11,891 bases of DNA from a virus. The notes beneath the pieces were generated by a model. That model made no database searches and had not been told where the DNA came from. It was given only the letters and a program-made list of their open reading frames with translations. Position numbers and translations under genes: made by a program. The stretch lies in UHGV virus genome UHGV-1567921, one strand, 5' to 3'. Every line of letters begins with the position of its first letter. The first letter of the stretch is position 1. Below, piece after piece: positions 72-6,719 of the stretch.

Positions 72-776
72 TCACTGGTTGCCTCCTTTGCGAATCTGTT
101 CCGCCCATTCTTCAAGGGATTTCTCCGCATATTTACCGGACAGACCATCAATCGGGTGCGGTTCATTAGCCAACTCTTTTTTCGCTGACAAAATCATGCG
201 TGTAACGTCGAAAACTTCACGCAAAGACTTATTGATAAATCCGTGATTGAACGCAGCAGCAAGACGGCTGGCGGTATAGTTAATCCCCTCGTTGCGTGCT
301 TCCGCACGAATTTCAGCCAGAAAAGCATCGGTAGCTGGAGTTTCGCTGTGGTGTAGGGCATCGTTGATAATCATTGCAGCAACACCAGCCTGCCCTGCAT
401 CCGTGACCGACACATGCTCAAGAGTTACGGCCATTGCGTGTTTCAGCCCGGCGTTCTCTGCCACCAGCGCCGCGAGCTTAGTCTCAAGCGGTGCTATTCG
501 GCACATAGCATCAATATTTGTGTCCTCCAGGCGCTTAATTTCACCAAGTAGCTCCAGTGCAACCTTTGGGTTGAATGCGGCAACATAACGAGCGTTGTTC
601 TCTGCGTTTTTCAGCCCATCAAAGCCGGTCCATTTGATAACATCTTCACATCGTTTATCACCGGGCGTATGCACAGCATACGTACCTGTACCCGTCGAAA
701 TAAACGCGACCCATTCGCCCTGTGTTGCCTGTTTTGCTATCTCACGTAGTGCCTGATAGTTAATTTTGGTTGTCAT
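72..776 (-). CDS. Ea22-like coiled-coil accessory protein (234 aa); family assignment tentative
   Basis: ORF 72..776, stop TGA at 72-74. Its ATG (774-776) overlaps the stop of the upstream gene in an ATGA arrangement. Segments INYQALREIAKQATQGEW and NARYVAAFNPKVALELLGEIKRLE resemble Ead/Ea22-family prophage proteins from memory; no search was run. Confidence 0.55.
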   Translation of the reverse strand: MTTKINYQALREIAKQATQGEWVAFISTGTGTYAVHTPGDKRCEDVIKWTGFDGLKNAENNARYVAAFNPKVALELLGEIKRLEDTNIDAMCRIAPLETKLAALVAENAGLKHAMAVTLEHVSVTDAGQAGVAAMIINDALHHSETPATDAFLAEIRAEARNEGINYTASRLAAAFNHGFINKSLREVFDVTRMILSAKKELANEPHPIDGLSGKYAEKSLEEWAEQIRKGGNQ

Positions 777-1651
777 GCCACCACCTCTTCGAATTTCAAC
801 TCCAATTGATCACCCCAGATTTCACATGACTCTGAACACGAGCCGGTATCGAATCGCCTGGCTTGCACCATCGCCTGATACAAATTTCTGTAGTCGCTGT
901 CGGCATACATTCTGGCAATCCCGTCAAGGCTCAGATGACCACGGTACATAACGTCTTTATTTGTCTTTCGGTGACCATCCCGGACGTGTTTACCTGTAAC
1001 CAGTTCATTAAAAACCCGCATCAGACCAGGTTCGTCTTTACATGCAAGCCCCAGCTTTTGCGTTGACTTTTTGATGCAAAAAACACAGTTCCCTAGGTGC
1101 TCCGGGATTTGCAAATCAAAAGGTTGTTTTCGCCACCACCGGATAACATCCGACTTATCAAAATCTGACAGCTCTGCAAGATACCGGACGCCCGGTTTCG
1201 GTTTCAGCCTGCGGTGTTCGTCCGCACGAATACCCAGCCATGTGATGTAATTCCCTCGCCCAAAATGGTCATCGCAATATTTCGTGAAAGGGGTGAGTTT
1301 TAGCCTGTCAGTACAGAACGCGCCGCCGATGTATGGCGTACCGTACTTTTTAACCATGTCCATAAACGGTTTAAGCACCGGCATTCGCGTCTGAATATCC
1401 TTTGGTTCCCATTCCGTATAACCATTTGGCTGCCCAAGTTCTGGATTTATATCGACCTGCAACACCGTTAGCGGTACGTTCCAGAACTTCACAACCTCAC
1501 GAATAAAGCGATACGTCAGAGGATGTTCACAGCCGGTATCCATAAAAATGAAATGGACGCTAGCGCCAGCTTTTCGCTGTGCTTCCATCAGATGAACGAG
1601 ATAAGCCGATGTTCGTCCACCTGAAAAGCTGACGACTTGATGCATACTCAC
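773..1651 (-). CDS. PAPS-reductase-like PP-loop ATP pyrophosphatase family protein (292 aa)
   Basis: PP-loop motif SFSGGRTS near the N-terminus and FMDTGCEHPLTYRFIREV, matching the CysH-type xxDTGxxFPETYxFI block. GTG start at 1649-1651 with AGGAA 6 nt upstream; alternative ATG at 1643-1645. The stop overlaps the next gene start (ATGA at 773-776). Confidence 0.85.
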   Translation of the reverse strand: MSMHQVVSFSGGRTSAYLVHLMEAQRKAGASVHFIFMDTGCEHPLTYRFIREVVKFWNVPLTVLQVDINPELGQPNGYTEWEPKDIQTRMPVLKPFMDMVKKYGTPYIGGAFCTDRLKLTPFTKYCDDHFGRGNYITWLGIRADEHRRLKPKPGVRYLAELSDFDKSDVIRWWRKQPFDLQIPEHLGNCVFCIKKSTQKLGLACKDEPGLMRVFNELVTGKHVRDGHRKTNKDVMYRGHLSLDGIARMYADSDYRNLYQAMVQARRFDTGSCSESCEIWGDQLELKFEEVVA

Positions 1652-1654
1652 GGT

Positions 1655-2383
1655 TTATTCCTGAATGCGCTTAAACTCGATTACCCACACCCAGGGATTA
1701 GCGTTCCAGCTTTCTTCACCATAGATGGATTCCCACAGGCGCTGGAACGCAACCTTGGCCATTGCGAAATCCCCCTTGGGAGTAAGGAATGTTCCCGGGT
1801 GATCAGGAAGCAAACTTCCAGCAGGCGGAACGCCCTCAGCCCTTGCATCGCATTCGCTGATATCGTTCAACCGTTCAACGCGCACGTTGGTAATTTCCAA
1901 CAGAATGCGTGATGCCCATCGCGGCATGTGAATTGATGGACGCCACCCACCATCAAACTTTTCATTCACAGTGTGAGGTTTCCAGTCGGCATCATCGGGT
2001 ATCGACCATAAGCCGTAATCACCAGGTTTTTGCTCGCAACTGGCCCGATAAATCCTTGCTGCGTTCTTCTCATCGCCACGACAAAGGTTGTCGTTCCAGT
2101 CCACACTGCAACCATCCTCATTGCCTAATATCGCCCATGTTTCACGAACCCAAATTCGATCGCCGACGATACCAAATGGGCAATTGAAAACACTGCTTAC
2201 ACCATCAGCCCCGTACCACTGAAAACCTGCACCAATTTTTCTAACCATCACTGGTGCTTCTGGACCAACTTCCGCAGGCTGATTTTTCATTATCCGCCGC
2301 GTCTGCGTTTTCCTTCCTTCGAGGATGGCCCGGACCATCTCATCGTTGAAAATCATGCCGCGCTCTTTCACTTCGCCTTTCAT
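1655..2383 (-). CDS. ASCH (PUA-like) domain protein with a large internal insertion (242 aa)
   Basis: N-terminal MIFNDEMVRAILEGRKTQTRR and C-terminal WVWVIEFKRI match the two ends of the ASCH fold (compare E. coli YqfB ...ILAGRKTITIR... and ...YVIEFK). ATG at 2381-2383 is preceded by GGGGGA. Stop TAA at 1655-1657 lies 3 nt before the next start. Confidence 0.8.
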   Translation of the reverse strand: MKGEVKERGMIFNDEMVRAILEGRKTQTRRIMKNQPAEVGPEAPVMVRKIGAGFQWYGADGVSSVFNCPFGIVGDRIWVRETWAILGNEDGCSVDWNDNLCRGDEKNAARIYRASCEQKPGDYGLWSIPDDADWKPHTVNEKFDGGWRPSIHMPRWASRILLEITNVRVERLNDISECDARAEGVPPAGSLLPDHPGTFLTPKGDFAMAKVAFQRLWESIYGEESWNANPWVWVIEFKRIQE

Positions 2384-2392
2384 GCATCCCCC

Positions 2393-2479
2393 TTACCCAT
2401 GTGCGACGATGCCGCCAAAAGTGATAGAGAACAGCCAGAAATAGATCGCGGCCATAATGATTTTGAATGCCGTGTTCAT
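2393..2479 (-). CDS. Small hydrophobic protein, 28 aa (MNTAFKIIMAAIYFWLFSITFGGIVAHG), probable single-pass membrane peptide
   Basis: Not in the supplied ORF track (too short). ATG at 2477-2479 with AGGAG 8 nt upstream. Stop TAA at 2393-2395 is followed directly by the GGGGGA Shine-Dalgarno of the ASCH gene, which suggests translational coupling. Confidence 0.4.
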   Translation of the reverse strand: MNTAFKIIMAAIYFWLFSITFGGIVAHG

Positions 2480-2506
2480 ATTTTCAGCTCCTGTGATTGA
2501 TTGGAT

Positions 2507-2540
2507 ACATGCCGCGCCTTGCGGCATGTTTTTATTTTCA
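2507..2540 (+). terminator. GC-rich hairpin followed by a T-tract on the plus strand (intrinsic-terminator-like); on the minus strand it is a 5' UTR stem-loop
   Basis: ACATGCCGC (2507-2515), loop GCCTT, GCGGCATGT (2521-2529): perfect 9-bp stem, followed by TTTTATTTTC (2530-2539). The T-tract is only on the plus-strand side. Confidence 0.45.
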
Positions 2541-2548
2541 CTTTCTCT

Positions 2549-2578
2549 GTTTTAAAAATCAAGATTTATTAGAGCAAT
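2549..2578 (-). promoter_or_regulatory. Copy (a) of the recurring intergenic element ATTGCTCTAATAA-N-TTTTTAAAAC (read on the minus strand); candidate promoter or regulator site
   Basis: The minus strand reads ATTGCTCTAATAAATCTTGATTTTTAAAAC. It matches copy (c) at 4690..4719 at 28 of 32 positions with identical spacing (TTGCTC, 17 nt, TAAAAC). It lies about 100 nt upstream of the next leftward ORF. Confidence 0.35.
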
Positions 2579-3084
2579 TATTGTTGGTGGAGAAGCGCGT
2601 TTTCATACTCCCTGACCATTAACGTAAGTACGCCGTGACTCCTGAAAACACGCGCCACTTCAATCTTATCTTCCAGCGCGAACGCAATTTTACTTAGACC
2701 AATTTTCTTCAGGAGATCAATCTTTGCTGGACCGTCATTTCTGTCATCGGTGGCAGGACGCATAGATAGCAAAGGCTCAGCCCCGTTTGTTACGTACTTC
2801 CGCAGCCAGGCTCGTGTTTTATCCCTTGCGATCTCACAGCGCCCGGTTACAAACCAGACCGTGTAAACGTTAAATAACTGGCGCACCATATCAATAACCG
2901 GAGTGATGGGAGTATCGGTGTCACAGGCGAGATTAAACTCGTTCCAGTCCTTTGTTAATGCACCTTTACCTGGTGGCGGAAGCAAATGCAGTCTGTCTTC
3001 AGTTGCCTCTGATATTGTTCCATCAATATCAACTATGACGATATACGGACGTTCCTGGTGTGCGTGTTTATTGAAAATACTCAA
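2578..3084 (-). CDS. HAD-superfamily phosphatase (168 aa), possibly polynucleotide 3'-phosphatase or nucleotidase-like
   Basis: HAD motif I IVIVDIDGTISE (DxDGT), motif II WFVTGR, and a later K and an ED pair consistent with motifs III/IV. TTG start at 3082-3084 preceded by GAGGAGGG. Stop TAA at 2578-2580. Confidence 0.8.
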   Translation of the reverse strand: MSIFNKHAHQERPYIVIVDIDGTISEATEDRLHLLPPPGKGALTKDWNEFNLACDTDTPITPVIDMVRQLFNVYTVWFVTGRCEIARDKTRAWLRKYVTNGAEPLLSMRPATDDRNDGPAKIDLLKKIGLSKIAFALEDKIEVARVFRSHGVLTLMVREYENALLHQQ

Positions 3085-3156: not shown

Positions 3157-4419
3157 TCAGCGAACGTAAATAGTGCCGCCGTTCTCTTTTTCCCATGCAT
3201 CGCTACGTGCATAGCAAACATCGAGAAGTCTTCTTGCCGCTGTTTCCTCTAAACCCAATTCGACAACCAACTGCTCATGACGGCGGGTAACCACATCAAA
3301 CAGGGTATGCAACCCTTTAGTTGCCAGATCATCAATGAATTCCGGTTCGAACGGCAGCTCTGCATCTGCCAACATAACCTCTTGCGCCCACTCAACTCGA
3401 CGGACCAATTCCGGGCGGCGGCTTTCCATCTCTTTACAGATCAATTCATGGAAGAACTCTACCCAACCTTCCGGCTGGAACTCGCGGAAAATGGCCAGCG
3501 GCTGGAAGTTTGGCATCAACCATTCGTTGATTCGGATATCAATGGCATAGCCCATGTCGCAGCAGAACTGATAAGCAAAGTCCAGCTTAGAAACGATATA
3601 AGGACGCTCGTTATTGAACTCTTTAGGCGATGAGATCCCATAAGCCAGGAGGCGCGGGAAGAAGGAGATTTGCCCTAACGTCGGATGAAGTTTGCTTGCA
3701 GGGAAACGGCGCTCAGTAATGCCATACATTTCCTTCTTGAGCGTCGCAAATTTGGCATTCTCATTAACCAGCGCGGTAACCTCTGCTTTTTTATTAGCAA
3801 ATGCCACGCGCGCTTCGCTTGCATCTTTAATAGTTTTTTTGAGCTGTTGGTTAAGGTCGGCGACCTGCTTACGCAGTTCCTGTCGCTCGCTTTTAGCTTT
3901 GTTATAGCGTTTCTCAAGGTTAAAAGGATCAAGTTTCATGATCTCTTTATATTGAGATTTTAGCGTTGAAATCTGTGAGTTCCGCAGTTCAACCATCGCG
4001 GTCATTTCATTGAGTTTTGTTTCCAGCTCAATGCTTATACGTTCGGCATTATCAGCACGCTGGTTGGCGTCATGCGTCGCATCGTCGATCGCGTCCTGTT
4101 GCTGGCGTTTCAAATGTTCAATTTGTAGCTGAAGCTCTTCAATTTCTTTACCCTTCAGACCGAGATCCAACTGCATATTTTCAGCTGCATCTACCAGGGA
4201 GTTATGGCTATCAGCTTCTGCGTTATAAACATCAATAAGCTGTGCGTGAAGCATCTCCGCTGACTGAACCGCATTATCAAAAAAACGCGCTGTGAGGTCA
4301 TCACAACTAACGCGGCGTTGCGCGGCCCGGATGTTCTGGATAATGGCCGGGATACCGGCATTCAGGACGTCAGGGATAGATACATTTTCGATTGATTGGT
4401 TTTGTGCTGAAGTGCTCAT
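3157..4419 (-). CDS. Hypothetical protein, 420 aa: long central coiled coil plus C-terminal globular domain, function unknown
   Basis: Long ORF filling the interval with consistent operon packing. The central ~170 residues are heptad-like and rich in E/K/Q/L (EIEELQLQIEHLKRQQQD... KQVADLNQQLKKTIKD...). The C-terminal ~180 aa is aromatic-rich with no motif I recognise. ATG at 4417-4419; stop TGA at 3157-3159. Confidence 0.85.
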   Translation of the reverse strand: MSTSAQNQSIENVSIPDVLNAGIPAIIQNIRAAQRRVSCDDLTARFFDNAVQSAEMLHAQLIDVYNAEADSHNSLVDAAENMQLDLGLKGKEIEELQLQIEHLKRQQQDAIDDATHDANQRADNAERISIELETKLNEMTAMVELRNSQISTLKSQYKEIMKLDPFNLEKRYNKAKSERQELRKQVADLNQQLKKTIKDASEARVAFANKKAEVTALVNENAKFATLKKEMYGITERRFPASKLHPTLGQISFFPRLLAYGISSPKEFNNERPYIVSKLDFAYQFCCDMGYAIDIRINEWLMPNFQPLAIFREFQPEGWVEFFHELICKEMESRRPELVRRVEWAQEVMLADAELPFEPEFIDDLATKGLHTLFDVVTRRHEQLVVELGLEETAARRLLDVCYARSDAWEKENGGTIYVR

Positions 4420-4420
4420 T

Positions 4421-4639
4421 TCAAAGTTCCGTATTAGCTTGTGCTTCGGTCATTTTTCCTAAGTATGAAGGAGGAAGGACTACGCAATTTGTATCCAGTC
4501 CCTCACCTATGGCAGCCTGTAAAATTCTGGCTAAGGTGAGTCTCTTGTTGCGATACCTGGTGATGACATGCCTGATACCGCCGGTCGGTGTAACAAAGGC
4601 GATCAGCCAGTAGTGATATTTCCGTCGGAATGGCCACAT
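4421..4639 (-). CDS. Hypothetical small protein (72 aa)
   Basis: ATG at 4637-4639 with AAGGTG 4 nt upstream. Stop TGA at 4421-4423 is 1 nt before the ATG of the 420-aa gene (coupled). No recognisable motif; composition unremarkable. Confidence 0.4.
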   Translation of the reverse strand: MWPFRRKYHYWLIAFVTPTGGIRHVITRYRNKRLTLARILQAAIGEGLDTNCVVLPPSYLGKMTEAQANTEL

Positions 4640-4653
4640 AGTGCACCTTGTAA

Positions 4654-4719
4654 ATTGCTCTAATAAAAAACGTGATGAGTGTACATCACGTTTTAAAAAT
4701 ATGGAATTATTAGAGCAAT
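4654..4719. repeat. Nested palindrome: 13-bp inverted repeat ATTGCTCTAATAA / TTATTAGAGCAAT enclosing a terminator hairpin
   Basis: ATTGCTCTAATAA at 4654-4666 and its exact reverse complement TTATTAGAGCAAT at 4707-4719. Between them lies a 7-11 bp stem (CGTGATG / CATCACG, extendable with AAAA/TTTT) at 4667-4694. Confidence 0.7.
4665..4699 (-). terminator. Rho-independent terminator downstream of the GT-A-like gene (mainly leftward; weak bidirectional potential)
   Basis: Stem CGTGATG (4671-4677) / CATCACG (4684-4690), loop AGTGTA. On the minus strand the stem is followed by TTTTTTATTA; on the plus strand by TTTT then A-run. Confidence 0.55.
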
Positions 4720-4720
4720 C

Positions 4721-5422
4721 TTATTCTGATTCTCGCTCAAAAAATGAGCTGATAAGGGGAAGCCAATCCTCTGACACTTCGCGAGGTCGCGGTTTGCCGT
4801 GGAAAAAGATTATTCGGCAGTCTTTTGGTAATGCCCCATTCCCCCTGGAGTAACGCGCGCTCGCATATTTTGAACCAGGTTCCACAACATCGGCCTTGTA
4901 ACTTACAAACCATCCTGGATACAGATCCTGAAATGCTGGTGTATCATCGCCCATAACCTTTCGTAAGAACCCCTGGTCACCCCAGCACTCAGTAGTGACA
5001 CAACGAGAAATCCAACCTTCCGGATCTTGCCAGAATGAACTCCAGATATGCGCTTTAACACTATTTGGTATCCACAGGGCACCGCTGCCACGATATTGTG
5101 GATGGTAAAAATCCCTAAGCATGGTGAAACTGGTTGGTGGATGCTCTAGGATTGGGCGTATATCACCGGCAATAACCGTGTCCAAATCCAGATAGAACAG
5201 ATCATCGGTTATATCCGGTCGGAACAACTCGATTTTCGCCCACCAGCCACGGCACTTTTGCCACTGGTTGATCAATGGGATAACTTTGACGCCAGGTACA
5301 TGTAAACACTTCAGGTCTGTCAGGCAAATAATTTCATAGTCTTTTGGCAGTTGATTAACCAGCCACTGCACATCGGAAGCGTTATAGTCACCACCAGAGC
5401 GAAGAACTAAAGCAATCTTCAT
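4721..5422 (-). CDS. Putative GT-A fold (GT8-like, DxD) glycosyltransferase, 233 aa, soluble
   Basis: [11 protein letters not shown] resembles the GT-A DxD nucleotide-sugar motif (compare LgtC ...VLYLDIDVLV...). The N-terminal [17 protein letters not shown] resembles the GT8 N-terminal strand-loop. No transmembrane segment seen. The ATG at 5420-5422 forms an ATGA overlap with the phosphatase stop. Confidence 0.7.
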
Positions 5423-6096
5423 GCTGCACCATCACCTTTCACTTTCATCAATGTCAGGTTTCCGCAAAATACGGCACCAGTGTCGATATACTGCTGATTC
5501 CAGAATGTCTTCGGGCTTTTCACCGGAGTGTGACCAAAGATAAAACGATCTGCGCCCGAAATTTCGCCACCAATATCATCCATCGAATCACTGATACGCT
5601 CGCGCGCCCAGACAACGTTGAAAAGCGGCACCTCCTTACCGAATTGGTATTCATTATCCGGATAGTCGGCATGGGCTATAACGATAGTTTCTTGCCCCGT
5701 GTTCAACTCAATGATATAGGGCAGACGCTTTACCAGCTCCACCAGCGCCCAGGCTAATATTTCCTGATCAGTGTCCAGCATGAAGAACCATTGTCCGCCA
5801 TTCATTAGCCAGTTATTCACGTTGCCATCTGGACTTAACGCATCAATCATCAGCCGCTCATGGTTCCCCATCACTGCCCTGAACCAGGGCATCTGCAATA
5901 GTTCCAGACATTCGACATTTTCAGTACCGCGATCGATAAGGTCGCCGACCGATATCAGTAAATCCTGCGCCGGGTCAAAATCCACACGATGGAGTTCGGA
6001 CATCAGTCTGGTGTAGCAACCATGCAGATCACCAACAACCCAGACATTCCTGTATTTGGTACCGTCGATACGGTGATAAATTGTGGGTGCCATCAT
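5419..6096 (-). CDS. Ser/Thr protein phosphatase, lambda PPase-like (PPP / calcineurin-like metallophosphoesterase)
   Basis: PPP signature motifs GDLHG, GDLIDRG and GNHE, with overall colinearity to lambda ORF221 phosphatase as I recall it ([16 protein letters not shown]... [21 protein letters not shown]... [13 protein letters not shown]). The likely start is ATG 6094-6096, forming an ATGA overlap with the upstream stop; the track's longer start at 6111 adds 5 residues. Confidence 0.9.
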
Positions 6097-6719
6097 GTAT
6101 TCTTCAGCCATTCTTTAAGAGTCATCTGCGGAATACCTCCCATTTTCCCGCATGAAACAACGTCAATCTGTTCACGCGCAGACTGGAATAACAAAGGCAG
6201 GTGACTTAGATTTTTTGGCGTGCCGCCGGAGTGAACGCGTAGTTCTTGCGTAGCGTCAACGCCCACCAGAGCTACATGTTTGAATCCGATATGGAAAGCC
6301 AGGTTCAGAGCACCATATGCACTATTGCCGCTGGCAATTTCATTCTCATCTTCGCAAAGGCCGAAATGTGCGGACCAGCGCCACGCCCACCACTCGGGAG
6401 AATTCGTATTTTTTGGCTCCATGCCGCGTTCAGCCACACGACGGAAGCACAGAACGCCATCTCTGACTTCACGTTCTTTAACATCGGGTAGTGCCATGCA
6501 ATAACAAACACCACGGCGACGGCGGCCACGACCAACGCGCCGCATATTGTCTGGGGATGGATCAAGGGTGAAAAAATAAGAAGCGCGGTTAAGCCAGTCG
6601 ATGGCCCCATTGACCGCTATAATCGGCACTCCGCGCGGCGCAACAAAGTTTGCGGCGCTTGGGCCACTGCCGACGATAATAACGCGATCACTGCCTCTAA
6701 ATTTATTCTTGGGAAACAT
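6093..6719 (-). CDS. Putative nucleotide-sugar glycosyltransferase, CstII (GT42) / MptE-like (DUF115) fold, 208 aa; paralog 1
   Basis: N-terminal [14 protein letters not shown]...VPIIAVNGA resembles the CstII sialyltransferase N-terminus (VIIAGNGPSL...). [26 protein letters not shown] resembles the CstII block TSGVYMCAVAIALGYKEIYLSGID. Clearly paralogous to the next gene. Confidence 0.7.

Follow-up and report, generated by a model that had tools for sequence, protein, structure and literature searches.

In an 11,891-nt stretch of UHGV virus genome UHGV-1567921 (the window, meaning the whole of the DNA analysed), a minus-strand operon of a P1-like phage-plasmid (Punavirus) carries in succession a homologue of phage P1 pmgT, a gene for a 3′-phosphoadenosine-5′-phosphosulfate (PAPS) reductase-like enzyme, and an Ead/Ea22-like gene. 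We consider it probable that these are independent, swappable early accessory genes under the control of the P1 C1 repressor, with an enzyme of the lambda NinC type that would help the phage to escape Dnd-type restriction and a PmgT protein that would act as an N4-acyl hydrolase. The first-pass annotation, made from the sequence alone, had read the tight coupling of the reductase-like enzyme to an ASCH-domain protein (PmgT) as the sign of a functional pair acting on nucleic acid, possibly a modification or anti-defence module. Our results favor the anti-defence half of that proposal, by analogy with a 55%-identical homologue of Vibrio phage 44E38.1, and speak against the module. All three genes are genuine rather than chance open reading frames (ORFs), with homologues in the thousands, and the locus is common, being found in dozens of sequenced P1-like plasmids in which both domain names are already annotated.

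Two genes, one mosaic junction

PmgT and the reductase are not co-conserved overall, and their juxtaposition is a mosaic accident. Among 5,426 complete Escherichia coli genomes, 488 carry the reductase gene and 185 carry this pmgT allele (each at ≥80% coverage), and 40 have both arranged as in the window. Most matches to the reductase gene are chromosomal (514 of 591 places), and 419 of the 435 places with pmgT are plasmid-borne. Hidden Markov model (HMM) scans of the ORFs in 255 fetched loci placed both families within 6 kb of each other in 22 loci (duplicates between scans included); a further 149 loci had only the reductase, and 84 had only PmgT. When 80 IMG/VR loci were anchored on PmgT, a sample that is unbiased as to the reductase, the latter lay immediately downstream in nine, and direct adjacency occurred in 3 of 19 allele clusters when PmgT was clustered at 90% identity. 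All adjacent cases come from E. coli phages, and in them the reductases are 97 to 99% identical, whereas the PmgT alleles beside them diverge by up to ~50%. One nearly uniform reductase beside such diverse partners therefore points to a single recent cassette spread by recombination, not to independent co-selection. The co-conservation that the pair hypothesis called for is thus largely absent from relatives, with a weak residual synteny in two Xenorhabdus prophages.

The borders of the shared sequence fit this history. DNA identity to phage P1, which amounts to 98.7% over positions 1689-2700 (from pap through most of pmgT, including the same operator, promoter, and 28-aa ORF), stops about 35 nt ahead of the pmgT stop codon, and this break inside the 3′ end of the gene shows the site of cassette exchange. 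Reference P1 continues with pmgU and pmgV instead and has no PAPS-reductase or Ea22 gene. In Shiga toxin (Stx) phages, DNA identity to the window begins exactly at the reductase start codon, and the reductase lies between unrelated small genes. Further, lambda (in its nin region) and the Stx phages carry the reductase without PmgT, and Klebsiella lambdoid prophages carry a PmgT that is 64 to 73% identical, in an early-left operon, flanked by methylase or recombination genes on one side and by xis/int on the other, with no reductase. Three more distant members of the PmgT family occupy similar prophage early regions, also with no reductase.

The spacing reported in the first-pass annotation is accurate. 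The PmgT stop codon is separated by 3 nt from the GTG that gives a 292-aa reductase, or by 9 nt from the ATG at 1645, chosen by the PGAP annotation pipeline, that gives 290 aa, and the reductase TGA (773-775) overlaps the Ea22-like ATG (776-774) as ATGA. What this spacing was taken to mean does not follow, since gaps or overlaps of 3 to 4 nt are seen between PmgT or the reductase and whichever neighbor is present, as in the Klebsiella prophages, where PmgT overlaps its neighbors by 4 nt, and since the adjacency is confined to one reductase allele. Tight spacing in phage early operons is, as a general caution, no evidence of functional coupling.

Three further observations concern these loci. 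In other P1-like phages and plasmids (L002, L003, and L016, compared with window positions 1582-1651), the first ~70 nt of the reductase gene are kept after pmgT and are followed by two small ORFs and Ea22; judged from their sequence, these stubs are scars of cassette replacement. An Ea22-like gene directly after the reductase is found in a minority of P1-like plasmids only, with the others having two intervening small ORFs. A PmgT-HMM match (E 3e-4) beside a 30%-identical reductase in a Hyphomicrobiaceae metagenome-assembled genome (MAG; L253) was rejected as spurious, since it falls in GC-rich DNA and reads a C5-methylase gene in another frame.

A NinC-family enzyme

The reductase-like ORF matches PF01507 above the gathering cut-off (E 4.4e-9; 37 bits versus 22.5), over residues 6-72 only, and its PP-loop, SGGRTS at residues 10-15, is intact, so the first-pass naming of a PP-loop PAPS-reductase-like enzyme stands. 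Among the PHROGs, it matches phrog_33262 (E 2e-91) and phrog_424, both at ~1e-91. Its full-length orthologue is lambda Nin290/NinC, to which it is 80% identical in amino acids over residues 3-287 and which it resembles in length, PP-loop, and cysteine pattern; this identity was obtained by way of GTDB contigs of 48.4-48.5 kb and low coverage that are 100% identical to lambda J02459. At the DNA level, the gene is ~90% identical to genes named 'NinC' in Stx phages. The settings differ, in that the lambda gene lies in the pR nin region, between ninB and ninD, whereas the window and Stx-phage copies lie in an early-left-type accessory operon with other neighbors. An alignment of 24 homologues, with identities down to 52%, has S8, S10, G11, G12, R13, and S15 as invariant residues, includes the DTG and GxRxDE motifs of the superfamily, and reveals six conserved cysteines (C113, C126, C189-x2-C192, and C272-x3-C276).

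The models of better-known relatives fit poorly. The equivalog models for CysH, DndC, and TilS all score far under their cut-offs, specifically 21.9 versus 154 bits for PRK02090, 14.9 versus 165 for TIGR00434, and 13 versus 254 for TIGR02057 among those for CysH, and 18 versus 290 for TIGR03183 (DndC). The PADLOC models give 17 bits for DndC, 49 bits for SspD (E 1.4e-13; residues 5-148, the N-terminal half only), and 18 bits for BrxP, whose 779-position model is matched over 53 residues. The CysH catalytic motif ECG[LIV]H, whose presence the first-pass annotation had proposed to check, is absent anywhere in the protein, which ends in GSCSESCEIW. No dndA/D/E or sspA/B/C partner is found among the ORFs of the window, nor are there BREX genes in it. 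Taken with the similarity to NinC, the low scores therefore place the enzyme in the NinC family of the PP-loop superfamily, and not with CysH, DndC/SspD, or BrxP. It has the PP-loop ATP-pyrophosphatase core in common with DndC, SspD, and BrxP; DndC and BrxP, however, are much longer, and the window enzyme is encoded by a phage rather than in a defence island. The common label 'cysH auxiliary metabolic gene' is, on the sequence evidence, wrong for the NinC family, a correction that is mildly new.

The 48.4-48.5 kb GTDB contigs mentioned above (L176, L178, L181-L183, and L185, filed under Pseudomonas, Oceanobacillus, Neobacillus, Shewanella, a Chromatiales MAG, and others) resemble spike-in contamination from sequencing that has entered public assemblies. 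In L176, the one contig checked, positions 5500-7500 cover the nin region and have 100% identity to phage lambda. Shorter fragments in other genera (L177, L179, L180, L184, L186, and others) likewise have 80% identity to the query, and together with the lambda-like contigs they inflate the apparent taxonomic range in homology searches.

Links to Dnd evasion and to DNA methylases

Evasion of Dnd is the best-supported function for the reductase-like enzyme, an assignment that is made by analogy. A protein listed as 'Dam methyltransferase with PAPS reductase domain [Vibrio phage 44E38.1]' (P0233) is 55% identical to it (96% query coverage; E 2.1e-94) and is the product of gene p0018 in the cassette of Piel et al. 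When p0018 and p0019 were moved into a sensitive Vibrio phage, the recombinant plated at 10^11 plaque-forming units (PFU)/ml on a Dnd host (bioRxiv 10.1101/2021.05.05.442762). This work is cited for a phage PAPS reductase that promotes Dnd evasion in a 2026 NAR paper, according to which genes of this kind are concentrated in variable phage regions rich in anti-defence genes (PMC13551039). Dnd systems exist in Enterobacteria, for example in E. coli B7A and Salmonella Cerro 87 (PMC12345140). The p0018 protein shares the PP-loop, the CxxC, and the C-terminal CSESCE cysteines with the window protein, and it too is the product of an accessory gene in a variable region. It differs in having a C-terminal Dam domain (PF05869, residues 300-476) and a DUF6475 partner, p0019, whereas the window enzyme is a stand-alone protein of 292 aa with an ASCH neighbor. 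That phage PAPS reductases are linked to anti-Dnd activity has already been published; connecting lambda NinC explicitly with the anti-Dnd PAPS domain is mildly new.

Members of the reductase family have a Dam-type methylase as neighbor or fusion partner more often than they have PmgT beside them. Of 49 species-level loci, 18 have a DNA methylase within 6 kb, and three of these 18 are PAPS-Dam fusions (Providencia and Erwiniaceae). Single-frame fusions to PF05869 are present in L212 (Erwiniaceae), L216 and L217 (Providencia sp. PAZ2), P0224, and P0233, and in prophages of Photorhabdus and Xenorhabdus the reductase is followed, 1-3 kb downstream on the same strand, by a separate Dam gene. Two candidate relatives were rejected: p0019 is a DUF6475 protein rather than a relative of ASCH or PmgT proteins, and the phage anti-Dnd protein JSS1_004 is a kinase of the T7 gp0.7 type.

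PmgT as a YqfB-type ASCH protein

The assignment of PmgT to the ASCH fold comes from a structural model. A first AlphaFold model, from a shallow alignment (21 sequences, 63-88% identical), was discarded (predicted local distance difference test score [pLDDT] 53); a second, built with 41 diverse representatives, reached a pLDDT of 88.2 and a predicted template modelling score (pTM) of 0.84. It has the ASCH beta-barrel, and beyond the N4-acetylcytidine (ac4C) amidohydrolase YqfB of E. coli (PDB 9kyf and 1te7), its further structural matches are ASCH proteins only (3s9x, 1xne, 2z0t, 1t62, 3iuw, 5guq, and 2kku), with which Foldseek concurs; matches in BFVD are only uncharacterised or 'ASCH domain' phage proteins. 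The PmgT octapeptide G23-R-K-T-Q-T-R-R30 aligns with G19-R-K-T-I-T-I-R26 of YqfB (GxKxxTxR), and E183 aligns with E74; the YqfB sequence used is 100% identical to 1te7_A. Across the 41 diverse family members, K25, R30, and E183 are invariant, and T28 is ≥90% conserved. In YqfB, K21, T24, and R26 are essential, and E74A cuts turnover 100- to 1000-fold (PMC6972931), and a 2026 preprint reports that each of the 19 ASCH proteins assayed in it strips ac4C from tRNA, with the Lys and the Thr/Glu of the octapeptide being crucial (bioRxiv 10.64898/2026.02.27.708502).

There are also differences. YqfB has 103 aa versus 242 in PmgT, has H70 where PmgT has an Asp, and lacks the insertion that splits the PmgT barrel (LGNEDGC...IYRASCEQ...PSIHMPRWA). 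This conserved insertion, of ~100-130 residues, consists of two segments (at about 33-70 and 86-158); in a closer alignment, its invariant residues are N88-E-D-G-C92, Y112-R-A-S-C-E-Q118, and P149-S-I-H-M-P-R155. The model, the motif, and the residue alignment together therefore confirm the ASCH label of the first-pass annotation, which is also the label given by PGAP to an identical protein ('ASCH domain-containing protein'), and allow it to be refined, PmgT being an ASCH enzyme of the YqfB type that has gained an additional module. From these we infer a catalytic activity, which would be that of a hydrolase of N4-acyl groups.

By sequence searching only, YqfB and PmgT are barely connected. 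Profile searches of PmgT against PDB gave nothing meaningful, and a search with a diverse profile returned close Klebsiella relatives only. Among the Pfam families, ASCH (PF04266), and no other, is weakly matched by 6 of the 41 diverse members (best E 3.3e-4). PmgT belongs to phrog_874, and 51,071 representative clusters at 50% identity match the family at E≤0.001. The recognition of so large a family as YqfB-type ASCH enzymes with intact catalytic residues is mildly new. Searches of the literature on pmgT turned up only a CRISPR interference (CRISPRi) essentiality table; P1 pmgT and lambda ninC are both dispensable for plaque formation (PMC10695390; CRISPRi for P1).

The PmgT of reference P1 (L001, NC_005856, 3766-4695) has 309 aa. 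Its in-register identity with the window protein ends at residue 232 (...SWSANPWV), after which come 77 unrelated residues that overlap pmgU, and it is therefore without the final ASCH beta-strand (WVWVIEFKRI in the window protein; FYVIEFKCL in YqfB). The reference protein may thus be a recombination-scarred, possibly inactive form; the 242-aa protein of the window is the intact one. In Klebsiella prophages L011-L015 (around 4130-5004), a conserved 73-aa ORF precedes PmgT and overlaps its start, and alternative DNA methylases (Dam, MT-A70, or a C5+Dam fusion) lie just upstream, giving a recurrent PmgT-methylase neighborhood.

Operon layout and predicted regulation

The flanking genes of the window are those of P1 (pmgO/P, ppp, pmgQ, pmgR, pmgS, and pap), and in the direction of transcription the minus-strand order is pap, a 50-nt spacer, a small ORF, PmgT, the reductase, and the Ead/Ea22-like gene (Table 1).

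Table 1. Genes and signals from pap to the Ead/Ea22-like gene, in order of transcription (positions in the window).
Feature	Position	Strand	Description
pap	3084..2578	-	HAD/PNKP-type phosphatase
Sigma-70-like pmgT operon promoter (predicted)	2577..2606	-	ATGAAA-18-AATAAT; consensus match only
P1 C1-repressor operator (Op88/OpmgT equivalent)	2562..2578	-	ATTGCTCTAATAAATCT; 1 mismatch to C1 operator consensus
GC-rich hairpin and T-run	2507..2529	+	10-bp stem; TTTTTATTTT tail
28-aa hydrophobic small ORF	2479..2393	-	P1-lineage-specific; stop 9 nt ahead of pmgT ATG
PmgT homologue, 242 aa	2383..1655	-	YqfB-type ASCH fold with large family-specific insertion
NinC-family PP-loop ATP-pyrophosphatase-like enzyme (PAPS_reduct domain)	1651..773	-	292 aa from GTG
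Ead/Ea22-like gene	776..72	-	PF13935, E 4.9e-25; next in operon

Regulatory signals were assigned by homology to P1. The C1 operator adjoins the pap stop codon and shares bases with the -10 element of the operon promoter, and the window has four operator-like sites versus 0.05 expected by chance. In the P1 record, the pap-pmgT spacer holds OpmgT (formerly Op88) and two predicted sigma-70 promoters, P1pmgT and P2pmgT, which fall in the same interval as the window promoter, a few bases nearer pmgT. From these signals, the region is identified as the 5′ part of the C1-repressed pmgT operon, which should therefore be repressed in lysogens and expressed upon infection or induction. Such timing is less in keeping with lysogenic conversion than with a function in counter-defence or DNA modification.

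The remaining operator-like sites match the C1 consensus with 2-3 mismatches. Those at 4654-4670 (+) and 4703-4719 (-) are at the place of P1 OpmgRa/b, upstream of pmgR, and that at 8327-8343 (+) falls in the divergent region between the minus- and plus-strand gene blocks. The hairpin in the table is terminator-like on the strand opposite the operon and lies within the operon's 5′ leader; read on the coding strand, it is a 5′ stem-loop without a U-tract.

The membrane peptide of the first-pass annotation corresponds to the 28-aa ORF (MNTAFKIIMAAIYFWLFSITFGGIVAHG), which is strongly hydrophobic (top 19-residue hydropathy window, 2.1) and has AGGAG 8 nt 5′ of its ATG. Over 49 related P1-like loci, it varies by three synonymous changes and one conservative change. 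The longest reading, of 44 aa (2527..2393), is interrupted by stop codons within its first 16 codons in 13 of these 49 loci, and the remaining changes in the extension are mostly non-synonymous. The ORF was not detected in non-P1 PmgT loci, has no PGAP annotation, and, like the Ea22-like product, has no match in PADLOC. Its pattern of sequence change suggests that it is probably a real, lineage-specific small hydrophobic protein, whose sole tie to the enzymes is translation just upstream of pmgT.

Weighing alternative readings

Several observations weigh against the reading of independent accessory genes with anti-Dnd and N4-acyl hydrolase functions. On the PmgT side, neither Pfam (E≤10), NCBIfam, nor PADLOC gives a match for the window protein, and hhalign joins PmgT to YqfB over only 23 columns, the N-terminal motif, at a probability of 12.5%. 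On the reductase side, the anti-Dnd effect was obtained with a two-gene cassette that includes a PAPS-Dam fusion, not with the PAPS domain alone (bioRxiv 10.1101/2021.05.05.442762), and the window enzyme ends at residue 292 without a Dam domain, with no methylase in the 11.9-kb window. As for independence, the same stop-3 nt-start junction is found with each of four PmgT alleles (at 100%, 83%, and 69%, plus a short form at ~50%), and Xenorhabdus prophages L198 and L228 contain divergent copies of both families (reductases 70% and 54% identical), which lie on one strand, one to two genes and no more than about 1.5 kb apart, amid C5 and Dam methylase genes. Because of the recurrent junction and the Xenorhabdus synteny, a facultative link between PmgT and the reductase stays conceivable. 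The same two observations, and the fact that both proteins are plausible nucleic-acid enzymes, are what speaks for a single module acting sequentially on the same base or backbone mark, for example with the PP-loop enzyme as 'writer', the ASCH protein as 'reader/eraser', and the membrane peptide as a third component. We regard this as unlikely, given that single-gene loci dominate the scans, that the adjacent reductases amount to one recent cassette whose junction is accounted for by recombination inside pmgT, that the same tight spacing occurs with unrelated neighbors, that the tested Vibrio homologue partners DUF6475 and not ASCH, and that the peptide is absent outside P1-like loci. A bolder variant, to which we give little credence, has PmgT as an active YqfB-like N4-acyl-cytosine amidohydrolase, erasing host tRNA ac4C or a DNA mark, and joins it with the NinC-type enzyme in a facultative two-step system that would rewrite a cytosine or backbone mark and so evade modification-sensing defence in those E. 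coli and Xenorhabdus phages that have both.

A different division of labor would leave PmgT unrelated and have the reductase and a Dam-type methyltransferase install a non-methyl modification on the phage genome, with the methylase acting in trans in P1-like phages (e.g., Dmt). The PAPS-Dam fusions of Vibrio phages, Providencia, and Erwiniaceae, the same-strand Dam genes (PF05869) 1-3 kb downstream in many Photorhabdus and Xenorhabdus prophages, and the inclusion of such a fusion in the anti-Dnd cassette lend it some appeal; we nevertheless hold it to be doubtful, since lambda, the Stx phages, and the window all carry the enzyme without an adjacent methylase. Also counting against it, we know of no report of a nin-region-dependent modification of lambda DNA. 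That the reductase is an auxiliary metabolic gene, a true CysH boosting host sulfate assimilation during infection, is suggested by its Pfam family name, by the PHROG category 'auxiliary metabolic gene', and by a weak N-terminal match (E 0.005-0.009) to solved structures of PAPS and adenosine 5′-phosphosulfate (APS) reductases. This resemblance is confined to residues 6-70, the CysH scores of 13-22 bits face cut-offs of 154-254, the catalytic cysteine motif ECG[LI]H is missing, an ATP-type SGGxxS loop stands where PAPS reductase 6vpu_A has SSSFGIQ (aligned position), and the neighbors are recombination and DNA-methylase genes, never cys genes; a role in sulfur assimilation, against which the first-pass annotation had already argued, is thus highly improbable. 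Equally improbable is a PmgT that functions in virion morphogenesis with unrelated passengers as neighbors, a reading that goes back to the historical P1 annotation only ('putative morphogenetic function') and that is opposed by the sigma-70 promoter under C1-operator control where a late promoter would be expected, by the ASCH enzyme fold with its catalytic residues retained, by the location of relatives in early recombination/integration operons of lambdoid prophages, and by the dispensability of PmgT in the P1 CRISPRi knock-down (PMC10695390).

A proposed course of events and its implications

Under the reading that we favor, of independent accessory genes in a C1-repressed operon, the operon would remain silent during lysogeny, infection or induction would switch it on, and the 28-aa peptide of the P1 lineage would be translated just upstream of pmgT. 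The NinC-type enzyme would bind ATP through the SGGRTS loop and adenylate its substrate; its six conserved cysteines probably hold a metal or Fe-S center, with which it could transfer sulfur or another group. By homology to the PAPS domain of p0018, we infer that this would let the phage escape phosphorothioate (PT)-based, Dnd-type restriction as the target defence, whether by chemical marking of phage DNA, by cooperation with a Dam-type methylase, or by disturbing the host PT machinery. PmgT would most likely remove, by hydrolysis, an N4-acyl group from cytosine, whether in a nucleoside or within tRNA or DNA, with its insertion probably recognising a macromolecular substrate. The juxtaposition of the two genes would have arisen through cassette exchange at gene boundaries and spread by recombination within pmgT.

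Lambda ninC and P1 pmgT are decades-old genes of the two best-studied temperate coliphages, and the two-step system, if true, would provide the first functions for NinC and PmgT. Our results tie the NinC family to Dnd escape, the only experimentally supported role of a phage PAPS-reductase-like domain, and the YqfB-type assignment gives a directly testable activity for a phage family of tens of thousands of members.

Elsewhere in the window, the block of P1 'morphogenetic' genes at 4721-7279 (-) matches glycosyltransferase/sialyltransferase-like families (phrog_1962 and phrog_4603) and a lambda NinI-like Ser/Thr phosphatase; because the matches are to such families, the 'pmg' names across this block are historical rather than functional.

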